Source of the DNA: a virus | Lineage: Duplodnaviria; Heunggongvirae; Uroviricota; Caudoviricetes | IMG/VR virus record: IMGVR_UViG_2778261268_000002 | DNA length: 64,000 nt | Strand: one strand, 5' to 3' | Shown: positions 54,338 through 60,531 of the stretch, in pieces | Position numbering within the stretch: the first letter of the stretch is position 1 | How the letters are laid out: every line of letters starts with the position of its first letter | Position numbers and translations under genes: made by a program | Notes under the pieces: generated by a model | What the model was told of the DNA's origin: nothing | What the model saw: the letters and a program-made list of their open reading frames with translations, nothing else | Databases searched by the model: none

Positions 54338-54964
54338 ATGATGTGCTTGCGTGAAACTGTGGGTAATAACGCCTCATTCCATTGCCATAACGGCAATGGT
54401 TACAGTTCTGATATCGATCGCGCTCATATTTACACGCTGGAAGAAGCCCAAAAAGCCTGGAATTGTGGGCGAGATATCGATCAGCCTGTTTGTGCCGATA
54501 GTGTGGATGCAATGGCTGTGTGGCACGTTGATTGCCAGTACATCCCTACAGAAAGCCTGATTGAGTCAGATTGCACTGAGTATGTGGCCTACAAAAAAGG
54601 TAGCTGGAACGGCAACGATGTTTACTGGCTTCAACACGGTGGATTGCCAACAGATGACTTCAGTAAAGCGACCATCTTTAGCGTCGTCAACAAAAACGAA
54701 CCAGGAATAGTTTGGTTGCCATTTTCCATTGCTGATGCAGCAAAGCGCCGGACGTTCAATATCAATAACTTTAACCGCAGAACAATGGTTCAGGGCGCAG
54801 GTTTGGTCATGCCTGACTGGTTGAAAGAGCAGAACAGAAGAAAGAAGTCGCGAAGCGGGAAGGTGCGTTGGAATTGTCCGCATTGCGGAAAAATAACCTG
54901 GCAGTACAGCCCATATGATTTTGAAGGCTGTAGTGATTACAACTGTGAAGGATGGCGAGAATGA
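54338..54964 (+). CDS. Hypothetical Cys-rich protein
   Basis: Start uncertain (ATG 54338, GTG 54320 or TTG 54296); C-terminal CPHCGK...CSDYNCEGW. Confidence 0.4.
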   Translation: MMCLRETVGNNASFHCHNGNGYSSDIDRAHIYTLEEAQKAWNCGRDIDQPVCADSVDAMAVWHVDCQYIPTESLIESDCTEYVAYKKGSWNGNDVYWLQHGGLPTDDFSKATIFSVVNKNEPGIVWLPFSIADAAKRRTFNINNFNRRTMVQGAGLVMPDWLKEQNRRKKSRSGKVRWNCPHCGKITWQYSPYDFEGCSDYNCEGWRE

Positions 54965-55614
54965 CAATTGACTATCAGGTACTGCGTGAGGCGGCAGAAA
55001 AGGCAACACCAGACGAATGGGTCGCATTTATTTCGACGGATACTGGTACTTATGCGGTGCACACGCCCGGTGATGAACGATGTGAAGACGTTATCAAATG
55101 GACCGGCTTTGATGGACAGAAAAATGCAGAGAACAACGCTCGTCATGTTGCCGCGTTCAACCCAAAGGTTGCACTGGAGCTGCTTGGTGAAATTAAGTGC
55201 TTGGAGGACACAAATATTGATGCCACGTGCCGAATTTCAGAGCTTGAGACTAATCTCGCTGCGCTGGTGGCAGAGAACGCTGGGCTGAAACACGCAATGG
55301 CCGTAACTCTTGAGCATGTGTCGGTCACGGATGCAGGGCAGGCCGGAGTTGCTGCAATGATTATCAACGATGCCCTGCACCACAGCGAAACTCCAGCTAC
55401 CGATGCTTTCCTGTCTGAAGTGCGGGCGCAGGGGGTGGATGCTGCTATAGAAGCTGCAAAAAATCTGGTGGCCCAAGAATATGAGTATAAGGATTTCAAA
55501 GCGGCGCAGAGTGATTGCTGTATGCACCCTGGTTCAGACCTGGTAGGGAAGGTTGAAATGACTGAGTGGTTAGTTGACTTTGCTGCCCAGCTTCGCAAAG
55601 GAGGCAACCAGTGA
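54961..55614 (+). CDS. ead/Ea22-like protein
   Basis: MTIDYQVLREAAEKATPDEW...; ATGA overlap with the upstream stop. Confidence 0.55.
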   Translation: MTIDYQVLREAAEKATPDEWVAFISTDTGTYAVHTPGDERCEDVIKWTGFDGQKNAENNARHVAAFNPKVALELLGEIKCLEDTNIDATCRISELETNLAALVAENAGLKHAMAVTLEHVSVTDAGQAGVAAMIINDALHHSETPATDAFLSEVRAQGVDAAIEAAKNLVAQEYEYKDFKAAQSDCCMHPGSDLVGKVEMTEWLVDFAAQLRKGGNQ

Positions 55615-56363
55615 GCGAAATTAATTACCAGGCACTGCGTGAGGCGGCGGAACGTGCAATTCCAGCAATGGAACGCCTGTTAATGTTGCCAGCTGATGAT
55701 GATTTGTTAAGTGAACAGGAACTTAAAGATTACGGTGTGGATATTGATGCGCTCAACGCCTTCAAATTTCTGACCGGACCAGAAACCGTGCTGGCGCTGC
55801 TGGATGAACGGGAAAGAAACCAGCAATACATAAAACGCCGCGATCAGGAGAACGAGGATATTGCGCTAACGGTAGGGAAGCTGAGAGTTGAGCTTGAGGA
55901 AGTAAAACAACACGCTGAAGAATTATCCGAAACCAAGGCTGTTCGTAACCAATGGCGGCCAGATATTTGCCCAATAACCGGACGTGCATTTTTCATGTGG
56001 ATTGAGCATCCAACATTGGGAAATGTGCCGACATATGGTGGCCCATTAGATAGTTACACCATTCCAACAAAGGACGGTGACGGTGAGTTTTCATGTGAGC
56101 GTTACGATCATGATTTTGGCGGTTGGGTAGAAAGCGAATGTCTTGGGTTATATCTGATTGATGATAGAGAACAATGCAGGGTCTACGAACTGGAGGAACG
56201 CGTTAAGGAACTGGATGCTCGGGAAATATCGCTCCCGGAACGTAGCAGCATGCTTCATCGAACAGATTTTCACGATGATTACCAAACGGTAATGGCATAC
56301 AAAGTTTCTGAAGTCATCGCTGCAATCCGCGCCGCAGGCATTCGCATCAAAGGAGGTGAGTAA
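55611..56363 (+). CDS. ead/Ea22-like protein (second paralogue)
   Basis: GTG start; MSEINYQALREAAERAIPAMERLL... Confidence 0.55.
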   Translation: MSEINYQALREAAERAIPAMERLLMLPADDDLLSEQELKDYGVDIDALNAFKFLTGPETVLALLDERERNQQYIKRRDQENEDIALTVGKLRVELEEVKQHAEELSETKAVRNQWRPDICPITGRAFFMWIEHPTLGNVPTYGGPLDSYTIPTKDGDGEFSCERYDHDFGGWVESECLGLYLIDDREQCRVYELEERVKELDAREISLPERSSMLHRTDFHDDYQTVMAYKVSEVIAAIRAAGIRIKGGE

Positions 56364-56539
56364 TGCGTGTGGCATGTATCGGCTTGTTACCGTACCCGAC
56401 TCGTTTTTGGGCTTCTGCGCTAATTGCAAAGCCGTATGTCCTGATGGCTGACAACATCATCCCGGCACCAAAGCGCCGCCATACCGGTATTGCAGCGGCA
56501 CGACGAGCAGCAAAGAGACGCAGGAGAGCAAAGCGATGA
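56363..56539 (+). CDS. Small basic protein (58 aa)
   Basis: C-terminal RRAAKRRRRAKR; TAATG overlap upstream, ATGA overlap downstream. Confidence 0.35.
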   Translation: MRVACIGLLPYPTRFWASALIAKPYVLMADNIIPAPKRRHTGIAAARRAAKRRRRAKR

Positions 56540-56712
56540 AAAACCGTAAGGCAAAACGACTTTTTTTACAGCGACCTGTGCGTGTGGTGGAGCTGGTTAT
56601 TAGCAACCATAAGATAGCGGTACTCCATCCATTTGGTCAGGTGGCTTTTGCCGCAAAGCGTAAGCCTACTGCGTCACAGAACAGGCGGAAGAAAGGGTAC
56701 GCTGTAAGATGA
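56536..56712 (+). CDS. Small basic protein (58 aa), paralogue
   Basis: MKNRKAKRLFLQR...KPTASQNRRKKG; 5' 20 nt repeated at 56709. Confidence 0.4.
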   Translation: MKNRKAKRLFLQRPVRVVELVISNHKIAVLHPFGQVAFAAKRKPTASQNRRKKGYAVR

Positions 56713-56897
56713 AAAACCGTAAAGCAAAGATTCTGTTAGTTCGTAGAAACGCTCCTGGCGTCTGGCAGTGGGTGAGACTCAGCAACCGACGGATGGGGTT
56801 GATGAAATATTACGGGATGATGGATTGTGGTTTTTGCAAAAAGCCCAGCGCGGCGCAAAACCGCTGGAAAAACCACTTGCGCACTAAAGGAGAGTGA
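56709..56897 (+). CDS. Small basic protein (62 aa), paralogue
   Basis: MKNRKAKILLVRR...KPSAAQNRWKNH. Confidence 0.4.
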   Translation: MKNRKAKILLVRRNAPGVWQWVRLSNRRMGLMKYYGMMDCGFCKKPSAAQNRWKNHLRTKGE

Positions 56898-56898
56898 T

Positions 56899-57414
56899 AT
56901 GGCGTTAACACACCGCGAACTCTGTCAGATTGCGTATAAGTTCCTTAAGCGCAACGGGTTCAAGGTTTGTTTTCATGACCGCTTTATAGCTGTAACCAGT
57001 ACCGGAGAACAGCCAGATGCTATGGGATTCAGAAATTCAGCATCATGCCTGATAGAGGCGAAGTGTTCTCGTGCTGACTTGTTGGCAGATAGAAAAAAGC
57101 GTTTTCGTAAAAATCCATCTCTTGGAATGGGCGACTGGCGATTCTTTATTAGTGAGCCGGGAATTATTTCAGTTGAGGATTTACCACCTGGCTGGGGATT
57201 ACTTCACGTTGTTAACGGAAGAGTACGGAAAGTACATGGGTGGCCCAAGGGTAATTGCTGTTGGGGTAATCCTGACGATAAGCCATTTACTGGAAATAAG
57301 CAGGTTGAATGCGATTACATGTTATCTGCATTAAGGCGCATGGAGTTGAGAGGGCACCTTAATGAAATATATGACGGTGTAATTGTTAATAAGAAAGAAG
57401 GAAACGCGGCATGA
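56899..57414 (+). CDS. PD-(D/E)xK nuclease, Hjc-type resolvase-like
   Basis: 171 aa from ATG 56899 (RBS AAGGAGAG); ...KRNGFKVCF...GEQPDAMGF...CLIEAKCS. Confidence 0.5.
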   Translation: MALTHRELCQIAYKFLKRNGFKVCFHDRFIAVTSTGEQPDAMGFRNSASCLIEAKCSRADLLADRKKRFRKNPSLGMGDWRFFISEPGIISVEDLPPGWGLLHVVNGRVRKVHGWPKGNCCWGNPDDKPFTGNKQVECDYMLSALRRMELRGHLNEIYDGVIVNKKEGNAA

Positions 57415-58127
57415 TCACTATTACCAAAGAGCGACTACTGACAATCAAGCAGTGGCGCGAAACATACGGACCTGGTAGCAACGTTGTACTGCCAGCAGAA
57501 GAGGCGGAAGAACTGGCACGAATTGCGCTGGCATCGCTGGAAGCAGATCCAGTTGCTTATATTTTCAAACATCCGGCCGGGAAATTATTCTGGTCTTTAA
57601 CGGATGAAAGCAATAAAGAGCAAGCGGACGTTATTCCTGTTTATGCTGCCGCGCCTGCGTCGGTTGTGCCGGATAATGCATCAGAGCCTCTTGCTTATGC
57701 TTACAAAGAGCTTACGCCTGAGATTATGCGCAACCATTTAGCTGTATTCGAGCGATATGGAATAGCCCCAAACGATAGCTCTACCACAATTCAGGCACTG
57801 CGAATCGCGCTGGATGGCATAGAGCGGAGCGACGCCATGCTTCATGGTGCCGAACCTGTAAGCCAAACTTACAAGTTGAACCAGCTATCGGGCAACTCTC
57901 CGGCAACTCCGGATGGTTGGATAAGCTGTAGTGAGCGAATGCCGAATACCAAAACAGCCGTTCTTGTTGCCGTGGAGTTTGACAGGAAAGGTGACTGGCG
58001 AATGAAATGGGCTACTTACATCCCCGGGCATCCTGACGCTAATGATGGGTGGATAATTCCTGGTGCGTCGTGGAAACCGTCACACTGGATGCCGCTACCA
58101 GAACCGCCGCAGGAGGTGAATCAATGA
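57411..58127 (+). CDS. DUF551 domain protein
   Basis: C-terminal W..CSERMP...VLVAV...W...PSHWMPLPEPP. Confidence 0.6.
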   Translation: MITITKERLLTIKQWRETYGPGSNVVLPAEEAEELARIALASLEADPVAYIFKHPAGKLFWSLTDESNKEQADVIPVYAAAPASVVPDNASEPLAYAYKELTPEIMRNHLAVFERYGIAPNDSSTTIQALRIALDGIERSDAMLHGAEPVSQTYKLNQLSGNSPATPDGWISCSERMPNTKTAVLVAVEFDRKGDWRMKWATYIPGHPDANDGWIIPGASWKPSHWMPLPEPPQEVNQ

Positions 58128-58207
58128 GCTGGCCTGAAGCATTCACCACGGTAGGAATTGTGATGGCGGCAGCACTGGGTTTGTATTCAATTTGTCGCTG
58201 GTGGTAA
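58124..58207 (+). CDS. Possible 27-aa hydrophobic micro-protein
   Basis: MSWPEAFTTVGIVMAAALGLYSICRWW; ATGA-coupled to the DUF551 gene; below the ORF track length cut-off. Confidence 0.3.
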   Translation: MSWPEAFTTVGIVMAAALGLYSICRWW

Positions 58208-58443
58208 CGATGGGAAAAATAACTTTTGTAGTCGAATTTGAGGATGGCAAAGAGCCACCTGTTAGCGCCAATCTTGATGTTGCTGGTGGCAGGCTGGTTT
58301 CGGTTCTATTTGGTGATTACCGCGACGACTTCTTTCAGCCTGAAGAAGTTGATGTAGTGCGAGAAGCATTAAACGAGCTAAGTGTTGATAACGATGATGC
58401 TCATGCGGAAATCATCAAAAAAATGGAACTGCTAACTCACTAA
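58192..58443 (+). CDS. Small acidic hypothetical protein
   Basis: 83 aa. Confidence 0.4.
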   Translation: MSLVVTMGKITFVVEFEDGKEPPVSANLDVAGGRLVSVLFGDYRDDFFQPEEVDVVREALNELSVDNDDAHAEIIKKMELLTH

Positions 58444-59296: not shown

Positions 59297-59958
59297 CTAC
59301 TCTAACGACAGCATACTTACAGCAATTGGTATTTTTTGCAGGCGAGGCTACTTGTCATCCTGACGCAAACTATTTATTGGAATTTGAGAGGTTAGCGTCA
59401 CCCGGTATCGTTCTGGAACTGGCCCAACAGGTGCTGGCCTTGAGACAAAAAGAGCAACATGAAAGTAATACGTGTAGATTGAATTTTGAGCAGTGGCTGG
59501 AACAGCAACGCGGAAAAATCGATGTGGACTGTGGTTGTGTGTCCACTGAAACATTCATGCACTGGCTGCGGGTAGCTTACGAGGCTGGCAACTATCCGGA
59601 TATTCCGGATAGTTCGGTGCCAGCGCCAGGAAAGGGCGTCACCGGTGAACGTATCCGCATTAAGCCGCATGTTTATCGCGAACTGGTTAACCGTCTCCAC
59701 GATACAGCGATCAAGTGTGCTGGCACCCAGCAATTACGAGAAAGAATTAGCCGTGTTTTGGGCGACGTTATTACGCCAGATCATCATAAACAAGCCGAGA
59801 AAAGTGACCTGGAAAGGTGTCACCTTGAGGCGGCATTAAACATTAAGCCGGGGCATACGCTTGGCATTATCGATGCTCTGTTGGTTCATAAGATGGCCAG
59901 GGCTTTATTGCCGCTGGTGGCTGAAAAACATGAGGTGGACCATGCCAACGAAAGCTGA
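59278..59958 (+). CDS. Hypothetical protein
   Basis: 226 aa. Confidence 0.45.
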   Translation: MAQKEMTTLTTAYLQQLVFFAGEATCHPDANYLLEFERLASPGIVLELAQQVLALRQKEQHESNTCRLNFEQWLEQQRGKIDVDCGCVSTETFMHWLRVAYEAGNYPDIPDSSVPAPGKGVTGERIRIKPHVYRELVNRLHDTAIKCAGTQQLRERISRVLGDVITPDHHKQAEKSDLERCHLEAALNIKPGHTLGIIDALLVHKMARALLPLVAEKHEVDHANES

Positions 59959-60226
59959 GTTACAGGCGCGCATAGATATTCTTGAAAAAGAGAATGCGAG
60001 TCTAAAAGGAATGCTGGCGCGGGCGGAAAGGGAATTATCAGGCAAATTATTGCCAGAAGAGCTGCCACCAGCAGATATACCTGATCGAGTGTCCTGGTGG
60101 ATGAAGTATTTCCGTGCACCGTGGGAGGCGTTTTGGTGCTACGACCATCGCAGATGGTGTGATGAGCTTGATAGCAGTTTCCCCTATTTTGCGGAAGGGA
60201 ACTCTTGCCCTGAATGTAGGAGTTAA
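59942..60226 (+). CDS. Coiled-coil / CxxC protein, paralogue 1
   Basis: ...WWMKYFRAPWEAFWCYDHRRWCDELDSSFPYFAEGNSCPECRS. Confidence 0.45.
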   Translation: MPTKAELQARIDILEKENASLKGMLARAERELSGKLLPEELPPADIPDRVSWWMKYFRAPWEAFWCYDHRRWCDELDSSFPYFAEGNSCPECRS

Positions 60227-60531
60227 TGATGACCGGCGAGCTTTATTTTAAAATGGCACGGGAGCGGCGTGTGCATCTGGATCGGATATTTCATCTCCAG
60301 AAGAGAGTAGAAGAACTGGAACGTCGTCTGAACTGTTATCCTGTTGATATGGTGTCTGCAATACCGCCGATTCCAATAGAAATGCAGATCCGCCTATGGA
60401 TGGAAGAATATGGAATGCCGTGGGAGATATTTTTCTGCTTCGACCATAAACAGTGGGTAGATGAGCTGGATAATAGTTTCCCATATTTCACAGAGAACAC
60501 ATGCCCAGTATGCAGGAAGAACGGAATATGA
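60226..60531 (+). CDS. Coiled-coil / CxxC protein, paralogue 2
   Basis: ...LWMEEYGMPWEIFFCFDHKQWVDELDNSFPYFTENTCPVCRKNGI. Confidence 0.45.
   Translation: MMTGELYFKMARERRVHLDRIFHLQKRVEELERRLNCYPVDMVSAIPPIPIEMQIRLWMEEYGMPWEIFFCFDHKQWVDELDNSFPYFTENTCPVCRKNGI

Follow-up and report, generated by a model that had tools for sequence, protein, structure and literature searches.

Locus and genomic setting

Do the three overlapping genes at positions 56899–58207 of the viral DNA stretch IMGVR_UViG_2778261268_000002 (64,000 nucleotides, nt; Caudoviricetes; hereafter, the window) form one dedicated system or are they merely neighbours, and what do they encode? A preliminary description, made from the sequence itself, had read this locus as a Hjc-type PD-(D/E)xK nuclease coupled to a DUF551 protein and to a very small hydrophobic open reading frame (ORF), referred to here as the micro-ORF. 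Our analyses favor, with moderate confidence, the view that the locus holds three genuine accessory genes of a lambdoid early module, chained in translation and including a predicted MmcB-related nuclease, and not a single dedicated system.

The three ORFs were recovered from the sequence at the positions previously given for them, all on the same (plus) strand and each with a Shine-Dalgarno-like site at its start. The nuclease gene (56899–57414; 171 amino acids, aa) begins with ATG, both in the ORF list and in the raw sequence, and has an AAGGAG Shine-Dalgarno sequence 6 nt 5' of the ATG at 56899; it contains both of the motifs quoted for it, QPDAMGF and CLIEAKCS. The DUF551 gene (57411–58127, 238 aa) has its ATG, at 57411, within the nuclease stop, as ATGA. 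The micro-ORF (58124–58207, 27 aa, stop codon at 58205–58207) overlaps the DUF551 stop in the same manner, and its GGAGG Shine-Dalgarno sequence (58112–58116, plus strand) is located 7 nt 5' of the ATG, inside the last DUF551 codons.

The segment 56800–58450 (1,651 bases) is 100% identical to plasmid p2RM9154-C1 of Escherichia coli O145 (96,355 base pairs), the genes of which include phd/doc and those encoding an S24 peptidase, a late promoter-activating protein, a metallophosphoesterase and a DUF968 protein. Given the gene order of P1, we take these genes to be P1 hallmarks, and the window was therefore treated as a P1-like phage-plasmid. The same DNA was found, at 94–99.9% identity, in some P1-like phages as well as in the early-left accessory regions of lambdoid phages, including Shiga toxin (Stx)-converting ones, and the two genes located 5' of the trio (54952–55614 and 55611–56363) match the Pfam family Ead/Ea22 (PF13935). 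Given these Ead/Ea22-like genes and the presence of the same DNA in lambdoid early-left regions, the segment is a lambdoid ea/exo-xis-type early-gene module within a P1-like backbone. The resolvase-like context that had been ascribed to the nuclease was not recovered, its neighbours in the window being Ead/Ea22-like genes and small unknown ORFs. ATGA chaining is the rule across the whole operon, as seen in the ORF list. No promoter, terminator or Rfam element was found to break the module, with promoters sought by a crude scan in which promoter-like sites were fewer than expected at random.

A predicted nuclease related to MmcB

A word-index homology search identified 325 relatives of the nuclease, and the full-length ones, mostly of 160–180 aa, were from Enterobacterales. 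The window ORF is colinear, from end to end and without frame breaks, with homologues of 160–176 aa from many genera. The predicted catalytic residues D40 (57016–57018), E53 (57055–57057) and K55 (57061–57063), on the plus strand, were invariant in 29 close homologues, as were E37, R58, D60, D64, K67, R70, G76, G78, R81, the W99-G-L-L sequence and R146-R147. An exhaustive profile search yielded 3350 clusters at 50% identity (E ≤ 1e-3), and in 40 distant homologues (34–56% identity) D40 was again invariant and E53 and K55 were conserved in at least 90% of the sequences. The AlphaFold2 model (predicted local distance difference test, pLDDT, 85; predicted template modelling score, pTM, 0.79) displays the canonical alpha-beta-beta-beta-alpha-beta order, with D40 opening beta2 and E53/K55 in beta3, and a beta-hairpin followed by two helices C-terminal to this core. 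Judged from its sequence and predicted structure, the gene product is thus a PD-(D/E)xK fold protein; the nuclease-fold assignment of the preliminary description is borne out by the retention of the catalytic residues in close and distant homologues, and by the structure prediction that it had suggested. With this fold, these conserved residues and the gene contexts described below, the 171-aa protein would be expected to cleave DNA in a metal-dependent manner.

The family is characterized by an extended motif, IE-x-K-x-SR-x-D-x-x-x-D-x-K-K, followed by R-F/Y and LP-x-GWGL. As a single query against the sequences of the PDB, the window nuclease returned only noise. A profile of the family alignment (A2), run with hmmsearch, matched the PDB entry 3dnx with an E value of 2e-4, and Hjc with E values of 0.3–0.5. 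PF06319 is present in proteins that share 79–88% identity with 3dnx, and the name given to these proteins is 'MmcB family DNA repair protein'. In hhalign, A2 and an alignment of PF06319 proteins (A3, a shallow alignment with 72–84% identity) were aligned over 121 columns, corresponding to residues 12–152, with a probability of 97.9% and an E value of 3.8e-13. The Pfam model for PF06319 matched 13 of the 40 distant relatives (best E value 2.9e-4) and not the window protein. Foldseek searches of viral models (BFVD) recovered 'MmcB-like' proteins with E values of 3e-7 to 1e-3 and resolvases with E values of about 0.1; against the PDB, Foldseek yielded only non-significant PD-(D/E)xK matches, and 3dnx was absent from this list. 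The closest structural neighbours of the nuclease were not Hjc/Hje resolvases. On the basis of these comparisons of sequences and profiles, we conclude that the nuclease belongs to an unnamed sister family of MmcB (PF06319), in the Hjc-like part of the PD-(D/E)xK superfamily. In the PHROGs database it falls into phrog_9263 and phrog_631, both labelled as of unknown function.

MmcB has been described as an SOS-regulated PD-(D/E)xK endonuclease that protects Caulobacter from mitomycin C and cisplatin (PMC9578287). The window family shares with the MmcB-like proteins (PF06319, formerly DUF1052; 3dnx, which is SPO1766; and Caulobacter MmcB) the PD-(D/E)xK fold with its D...E-x-K core, the motif (I/V)-E-C/A-K-x-S-R-x-D-F-x-x-D-x-K followed by R-F/Y and LP...GL, and a similar size of about 145–170 aa. 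The two differ in that the 3dnx relatives retrieved are chromosomal genes of Rhodobacterales, whereas the window family is found on phages and prophages of Enterobacterales, Vibrio and other bacteria, and in that the window family has a conserved insert of its own, KK-x-FR-x-x-P-x-x-GMG-x-x-R; SOS regulation, with a role in resistance to cross-linking agents, is known only for the Caulobacter gene (PMC9578287).

The term 'Hjc-type' implied a Holliday-junction resolvase acting on branched phage DNA, an identity that we consider unlikely for the 171-aa protein. Hjc (PF01870; 1hh1, 1ob8) belongs to the same superfamily with an equal spacing of the catalytic Asp, Glu and Lys residues, such that D40-13-E53-x-K55 aligns with Hjc D42/E55/K57 in a profile alignment to 1hh1, and both proteins have K-S-R after the catalytic lysine. 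Hjc was also the commonest sub-threshold Pfam match among the relatives (14 of the 29 close and 23 of the 40 distant homologues, best E value 1.3e-4), and nuclease homologues occur in replication modules and nin regions, the kind of setting expected for an enzyme that cuts junctions. However, the window nuclease itself had no Hjc match even at E ≤ 10, the Hjc structures were weaker profile matches than 3dnx, and the window family is about 30–50 residues longer than Hjc, with extra C-terminal elements; some 60 additional C-terminal residues, forming the beta-hairpin and the two helices, align with 3dnx and not with Hjc. Furthermore, Hjc is archaeal, whereas the window family is distributed in bacterial phages and co-occurs with RusA or NinG. 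RusA and NinG are established junction resolvases, and in Providencia and Lonsdalea prophages the gene directly adjoins one or the other; it is therefore not the substitute resolvase of the phage there. The cutting of branched DNA would also be compatible with an MmcB-related endonuclease. The core spacing and the sub-threshold Hjc hits of the relatives stand from the original label, while the overall resemblance of the window protein is to MmcB.

Gene neighbourhoods and proposed role of the nuclease

The gene order around the nuclease homologue is Dam, Lar, homologue, RusA, Q in a Providencia prophage, and NinB ... homologue, NinG ... Q in Lonsdalea prophages. On a metagenomic contig the homologue follows DnaB and DUF3987, and on another contig it is followed by an integrase. 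In Vibrio phage PVA3 (locus L260, 4001–4471), the homologue is annotated as an 'endonuclease' and lies between Xni and two helicases on one side and a primase on the other, and in the Salmonella phage Kuttervirus rabagast (L261, 3980–4597) it precedes primase subunits. Searches with tblastn detected the family in 643 phage genomes, both temperate and virulent. Since the recurrent neighbours are replication and recombination genes, and since RusA and NinG coexist with the homologues rather than being replaced by them, we infer from fold and context a replication-, recombination- or repair-associated endonuclease for structured or damaged DNA. Its most likely task would be the cutting of a branched, stalled-fork or damaged intermediate arising during phage replication, recombination or repair.

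A very common phage nuclease family (3350 clusters, 643 phage genomes), with virulent Ackermannviridae and Vibrio phages among its carriers, has thus remained without a name or model in Pfam and NCBIfam and without a function in PHROGs. It can now be labelled as a family of MmcB-related PD-(D/E)xK endonucleases, with named catalytic residues and a recurrent place beside primase, helicase and recombination genes, and this provides a biochemical hypothesis.

On one metagenomic contig (L257, 2877–3386), as in the unrelated virulent phages PVA3 and rabagast, the nuclease homologue directly adjoins primase or helicase genes. A distant member of 428 aa (P0133) has the nuclease domain C-terminal to about 260 residues of unknown type, an architecture not present in the window.

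The DUF551 protein

Pfam DUF551 (PF04448) matched residues 169–234 of the 238-aa protein over model positions 1–68 of 68, with 76.9 bits against a cut-off of 22 (E value 2.2e-21), confirming the DUF551 C-terminus of the second gene; in the RefSeq annotation of the identical plasmid, this protein is a 'DUF551 domain-containing protein' (WP_000628748.1). The Ead/Ea22 N-terminal signature (PF13935) gave no match in the Pfam search of the 57411–58127 product. Comparison of 88 viral contigs revealed a conserved N-terminus proper to this protein (MITITKERLL...) and a hyper-variable middle. At these 88 IMG/VR loci (L136–L206 and others), which carry the E. coli-type nuclease allele, the gene following the nuclease occurred in more than 50 different lengths, from 40 to 468 aa, with window-like first 60 residues in 73 loci and a DUF551 end in 66. 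A PDB sequence search identified no relative of the DUF551 protein, and AlphaFold2 prediction for the C-terminal 79 residues from a 20-sequence alignment produced no usable model (pLDDT 48).

DUF551 has been described as a portable domain borne on different N-termini, and is present in one Stx-phage Ea22 variant and in YfdS (PMC10834534). The window protein resembles the DUF551/EaA-like proteins and the Ea22 'V2' variants of Stx phages (PF04448; YfdS of prophage CPS-53) in that its C-terminal 66 residues match the whole model, and in its location in an early-left accessory region of lambdoid phages. It differs from the 'V2' variants in the lack of the Ead/Ea22 coiled-coil signature, in place of which it has its own N-terminus and variable middle. 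The 238-aa protein is a mosaic EaA-like protein in which the portable DUF551 domain is the only recognisable part.

A candidate small membrane protein

The product of the micro-ORF, MSWPEAFTTVGIVMAAALGLYSICRWW, has a mean Kyte-Doolittle hydropathy of 1.85 over residues 6–24, which is compatible with one membrane span. The peptide was found by tblastn in 92 phage records (54–100% identity), including 933W, VT2-Sakai, BP-4795 and Min27, and the DNA of the micro-ORF by blastn in 1667 of 5426 complete E. coli genomes (about 31%), at up to 9 places per genome. Eight sequences from different phages all had 27 codons, the ATGA overlap with the upstream stop and, at an unchanged position, a Shine-Dalgarno-like purine run. 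Only about half of these eight examples have DUF551 in the upstream gene, and at least four unrelated genes precede micro-ORFs that retain the overlap and the Shine-Dalgarno-like site.

The variable sites of these eight sequences number 14, 10 and 21 at codon positions 1, 2 and 3, respectively, and the ratio of nonsynonymous to synonymous differences per site (pN/pS) is 0.14–0.66, and below 1 in every informative pair, for a sample of only eight sequences of 27 codons. Stops are present in the other two reading frames. Scanning of IMG/VR with a degenerate DNA pattern, in which codons 1, 3, 4, 6 and 11 were fully fixed and codon 5 was set as D or E, identified 120 independent viral contigs or loci with 30 peptide variants, none of which had an internal stop. 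The length of 27 codons was exact in 114 of the 120 loci; the deviant lengths comprised four shorter ORFs (23–24 aa) and one longer (30 aa), and two short reads of 19 and 20 aa may have been cut by locus ends. Residues 21–26 (Y/F-S-I-C-R-W), which lie outside the constraints of the search pattern, were nearly invariant.

The micro-ORF is thus under coding selection, and the ATGA-coupled hydrophobic ORF noticed in the preliminary description is gene-like in both its purifying selection and its length. It plausibly encodes an overlooked small membrane protein. Translation would most likely occur by termination-reinitiation at the ATGA overlap, from the micro-ORF's own Shine-Dalgarno site. The micro-protein may span the membrane once, its conserved C-terminal R-W facing the cytoplasm, and could target a membrane protein or the host envelope during early infection or upon induction. 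Small single-pass membrane proteins and type I toxins (Hok/Gef) offer a comparison: the micro-protein, 27 residues long, has a single hydrophobic stretch of about 19 residues, a basic/aromatic C-terminal cap and a prophage origin. However, it is encoded by an internal, ATGA-coupled cistron of a long operon and not by a stand-alone gene with a promoter and antisense RNA, and in sequence it resembles no family of PHROGs, Pfam or NCBIfam. None of the traits of a type I toxin locus (own promoter, as judged from the crude scan; antisense RNA, as judged from Rfam; similarity to a toxin family) was found for the micro-ORF. The peptide might also be an early-operon membrane effector of Stx/lambdoid prophages working with the preceding DUF551 domain, for example by recruiting DUF551 proteins to the inner membrane or by altering host envelope function, but we hold this to be a doubtful proposition. 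If it were true, the altered envelope function would influence superinfection, induction or the release of Shiga-toxin phages.

In an alternative that seems rather improbable, the 27-codon ORF is not a gene, and its 84 bases are kept because they serve as an RNA element or, at a mosaic boundary, as a recombination 'linker'. In megablast searches, most alignments with the upstream genes end at 58120, just 5' of the micro-ORF, which places the micro-ORF at the edge of a module. PHROGs, Pfam and NCBIfam contain no family that matches the micro-ORF, and neither the RefSeq record of the identical plasmid nor any of the seven phage records inspected annotates it, which would also suit a non-coding element; a few GenBank submitters have nevertheless called it as a protein ('bacteriophage protein', 'hypothetical protein'). 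An RNA element is not supported by Rfam, which gave no match at E ≤ 1 in the region, antisense RNA included, nor by predicted folding, in which the RNA did not outperform shuffled versions of itself (z = +1.18), and no terminator or flanking promoter-like site was found nearby in a crude promoter scan. A linker kept as DNA does not fit the concentration of substitutions at third codon positions, the low pN/pS values, the 30 variants free of internal stops, or the retention of the start codon, the ATGA overlap and the Shine-Dalgarno-like site behind unrelated upstream genes.

The exo-xis/ea region of Stx phages has been studied for its modulation of lysogeny and of toxin-phage induction. This region holds a conserved micro-ORF that is without annotation in the eight records inspected; the literature search for its peptide strings found no paper with them, and the exo-xis papers searched made no mention of the nuclease or of a small membrane ORF. 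Only the micro-peptide is mildly new; the nuclease adds an unnamed member to a superfamily already known, and current understanding is not overturned.

The micro-ORF is followed in the window by a 77-aa gene (58210–58443, phrog_3876). In VT2-Sakai (L002, 2752–2964), a 'gef homolog' (Hok/Gef-type small toxin), different from the window gene at this place, lies about 150 nt 3' of the micro-ORF.

One system or three neighbours

We consider it distinctly improbable that the three genes constitute one functional system (defence, anti-defence or toxin) in which the micro-peptide would act at the membrane as a tether or regulator of the other two products. Such a system is suggested by the ATGA overlap at both junctions of the trio, by the occurrence, at the E. 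coli-type nuclease loci, of a DUF551 end in the next gene (66 of 88) and of the micro-ORF no more than 2.5 kb downstream (46 of 88), and by the DUF551 C-termini that end at the start of the micro-ORF in 56 of the 120 micro-ORF loci (45 of the 98 for which 2 kb or more of upstream sequence was available). A 2-nt deletion that circulates in the catalytic Glu codon, described below, could also hint at a cost of the nuclease to the host. However, ATGA chaining is general in the operon and is therefore no specific sign of partnership. Nuclease homologues at 60–67% identity, and more distant ones, have other neighbours, with no DUF551 or micro-ORF, and the nuclease was present anywhere upstream of the micro-ORF in only 13 of the 98 loci. 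In VT2-Sakai, ArgO145 and Av-05, the micro-ORF follows genes without DUF551. PADLOC returned no match for any of the three products, for the gene that follows them or for the three small ORFs that precede them. The coupling announced in the preliminary description consequently holds for translation, through the ATGA overlap, and not for a functional unit.

Some observations weigh against the reading of three chained accessory genes that we prefer. The DUF551 end in 66 of the 88 loci would be compatible with a functional link between the nuclease and the DUF551 protein. The window nuclease has no match in Pfam, Hjc and PF06319 included, even at E ≤ 10, and none in NCBIfam, and the MmcB alignment used in hhalign was shallow. 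For the micro-ORF, the selection estimate comes from few and short sequences, the search pattern fixed part of the codons in advance, and part of the conservation reflects recent common descent, because most of the examples are from closely related E. coli prophages.

A DUF551::peptide fusion was suggested by 121-aa 'DUF551' proteins that clustered with the peptide. Their sequences show no fusion, and the clustering was an artefact.

Alleles and fusions of the nuclease gene

In the RefSeq annotation of the identical plasmid (Prokaryotic Genome Annotation Pipeline), only 56899–57077, the first 179 nt of the nuclease gene, are annotated, as a 'frameshifted' pseudogene. A natural allele with a 2-nt deletion reads CTGATT--GGCGAAA in place of CTGATAGAGGCGAAG; the catalytic Glu53 codon is lost and hand translation yields a 58-aa N-terminal fragment. 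This fragment was equated with phrog_16308, because its length agrees with that of the model (58) and the window protein matches the model over residues 1–55. The deletion allele was detected in 12 IMG/VR contigs and the intact 32-mer in at least 120, and at three loci (L031, L077 and L114) the deletion lies about 1.07 kb 5' of the respective micro-ORFs. Truncated, chimeric and frameshifted versions of the gene are common in E. coli (P0061, with 111 aa and 645 members, P0041, P0064 and P0081). The RefSeq 'frameshift' label is best explained by evidence proteins of the 2-nt-deletion allele, and this allele, or one truncated in a similar way, is the probable source of P0061, the widespread 111-aa C-terminal call. 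Despite that label and the frequency of broken versions in E. coli, a decayed pseudogene is scarcely conceivable for the window, given an ORF open for 171 codons and colinear with homologues of many genera, a sequence that folds confidently in AlphaFold2, and an intact 32-mer in at least 120 viral contigs with the 171-codon ORF in 86 of the 88 loci of the exact intact allele. Our results would correct the automatic annotation by which an intact nuclease gene is called a frameshifted pseudogene.

Fusions of an Ead/Ea22 N-terminal coiled coil with a complete nuclease domain were found in Salmonella and E. coli prophages (P0009, P0091, P0093 and P0103; the last three are Salmonella clusters), and P0020 is a nuclease::DUF551 chimera. 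Among Ea22-like proteins, the nuclease domain is thus one of the C-terminal modules that can be interchanged.

Other ORFs of the region

Between the second Ead/Ea22-like gene and the nuclease gene, positions 56363–56897 hold three small basic ORFs (58, 58 and 62 aa) that are chained through ATGA or TGAtATG junctions. The second and third of these (56536–56712 and 56709–56897) are paralogues (37% identity, E value 5e-10) whose starts share a 21-nt direct repeat; the middle ORF, 56536–56712, is without annotation in the identical RefSeq plasmid. Further downstream, 59861–60226 (121 aa) and 60226–60531 (101 aa) are tandem paralogous ORFs with 52% identity over 54 residues. They have in common the C-terminal motif PWE-F-C-DH--W-DELD-SFPYF-E--CP-CR, which may correspond to a small Cys/His metal-binding domain.

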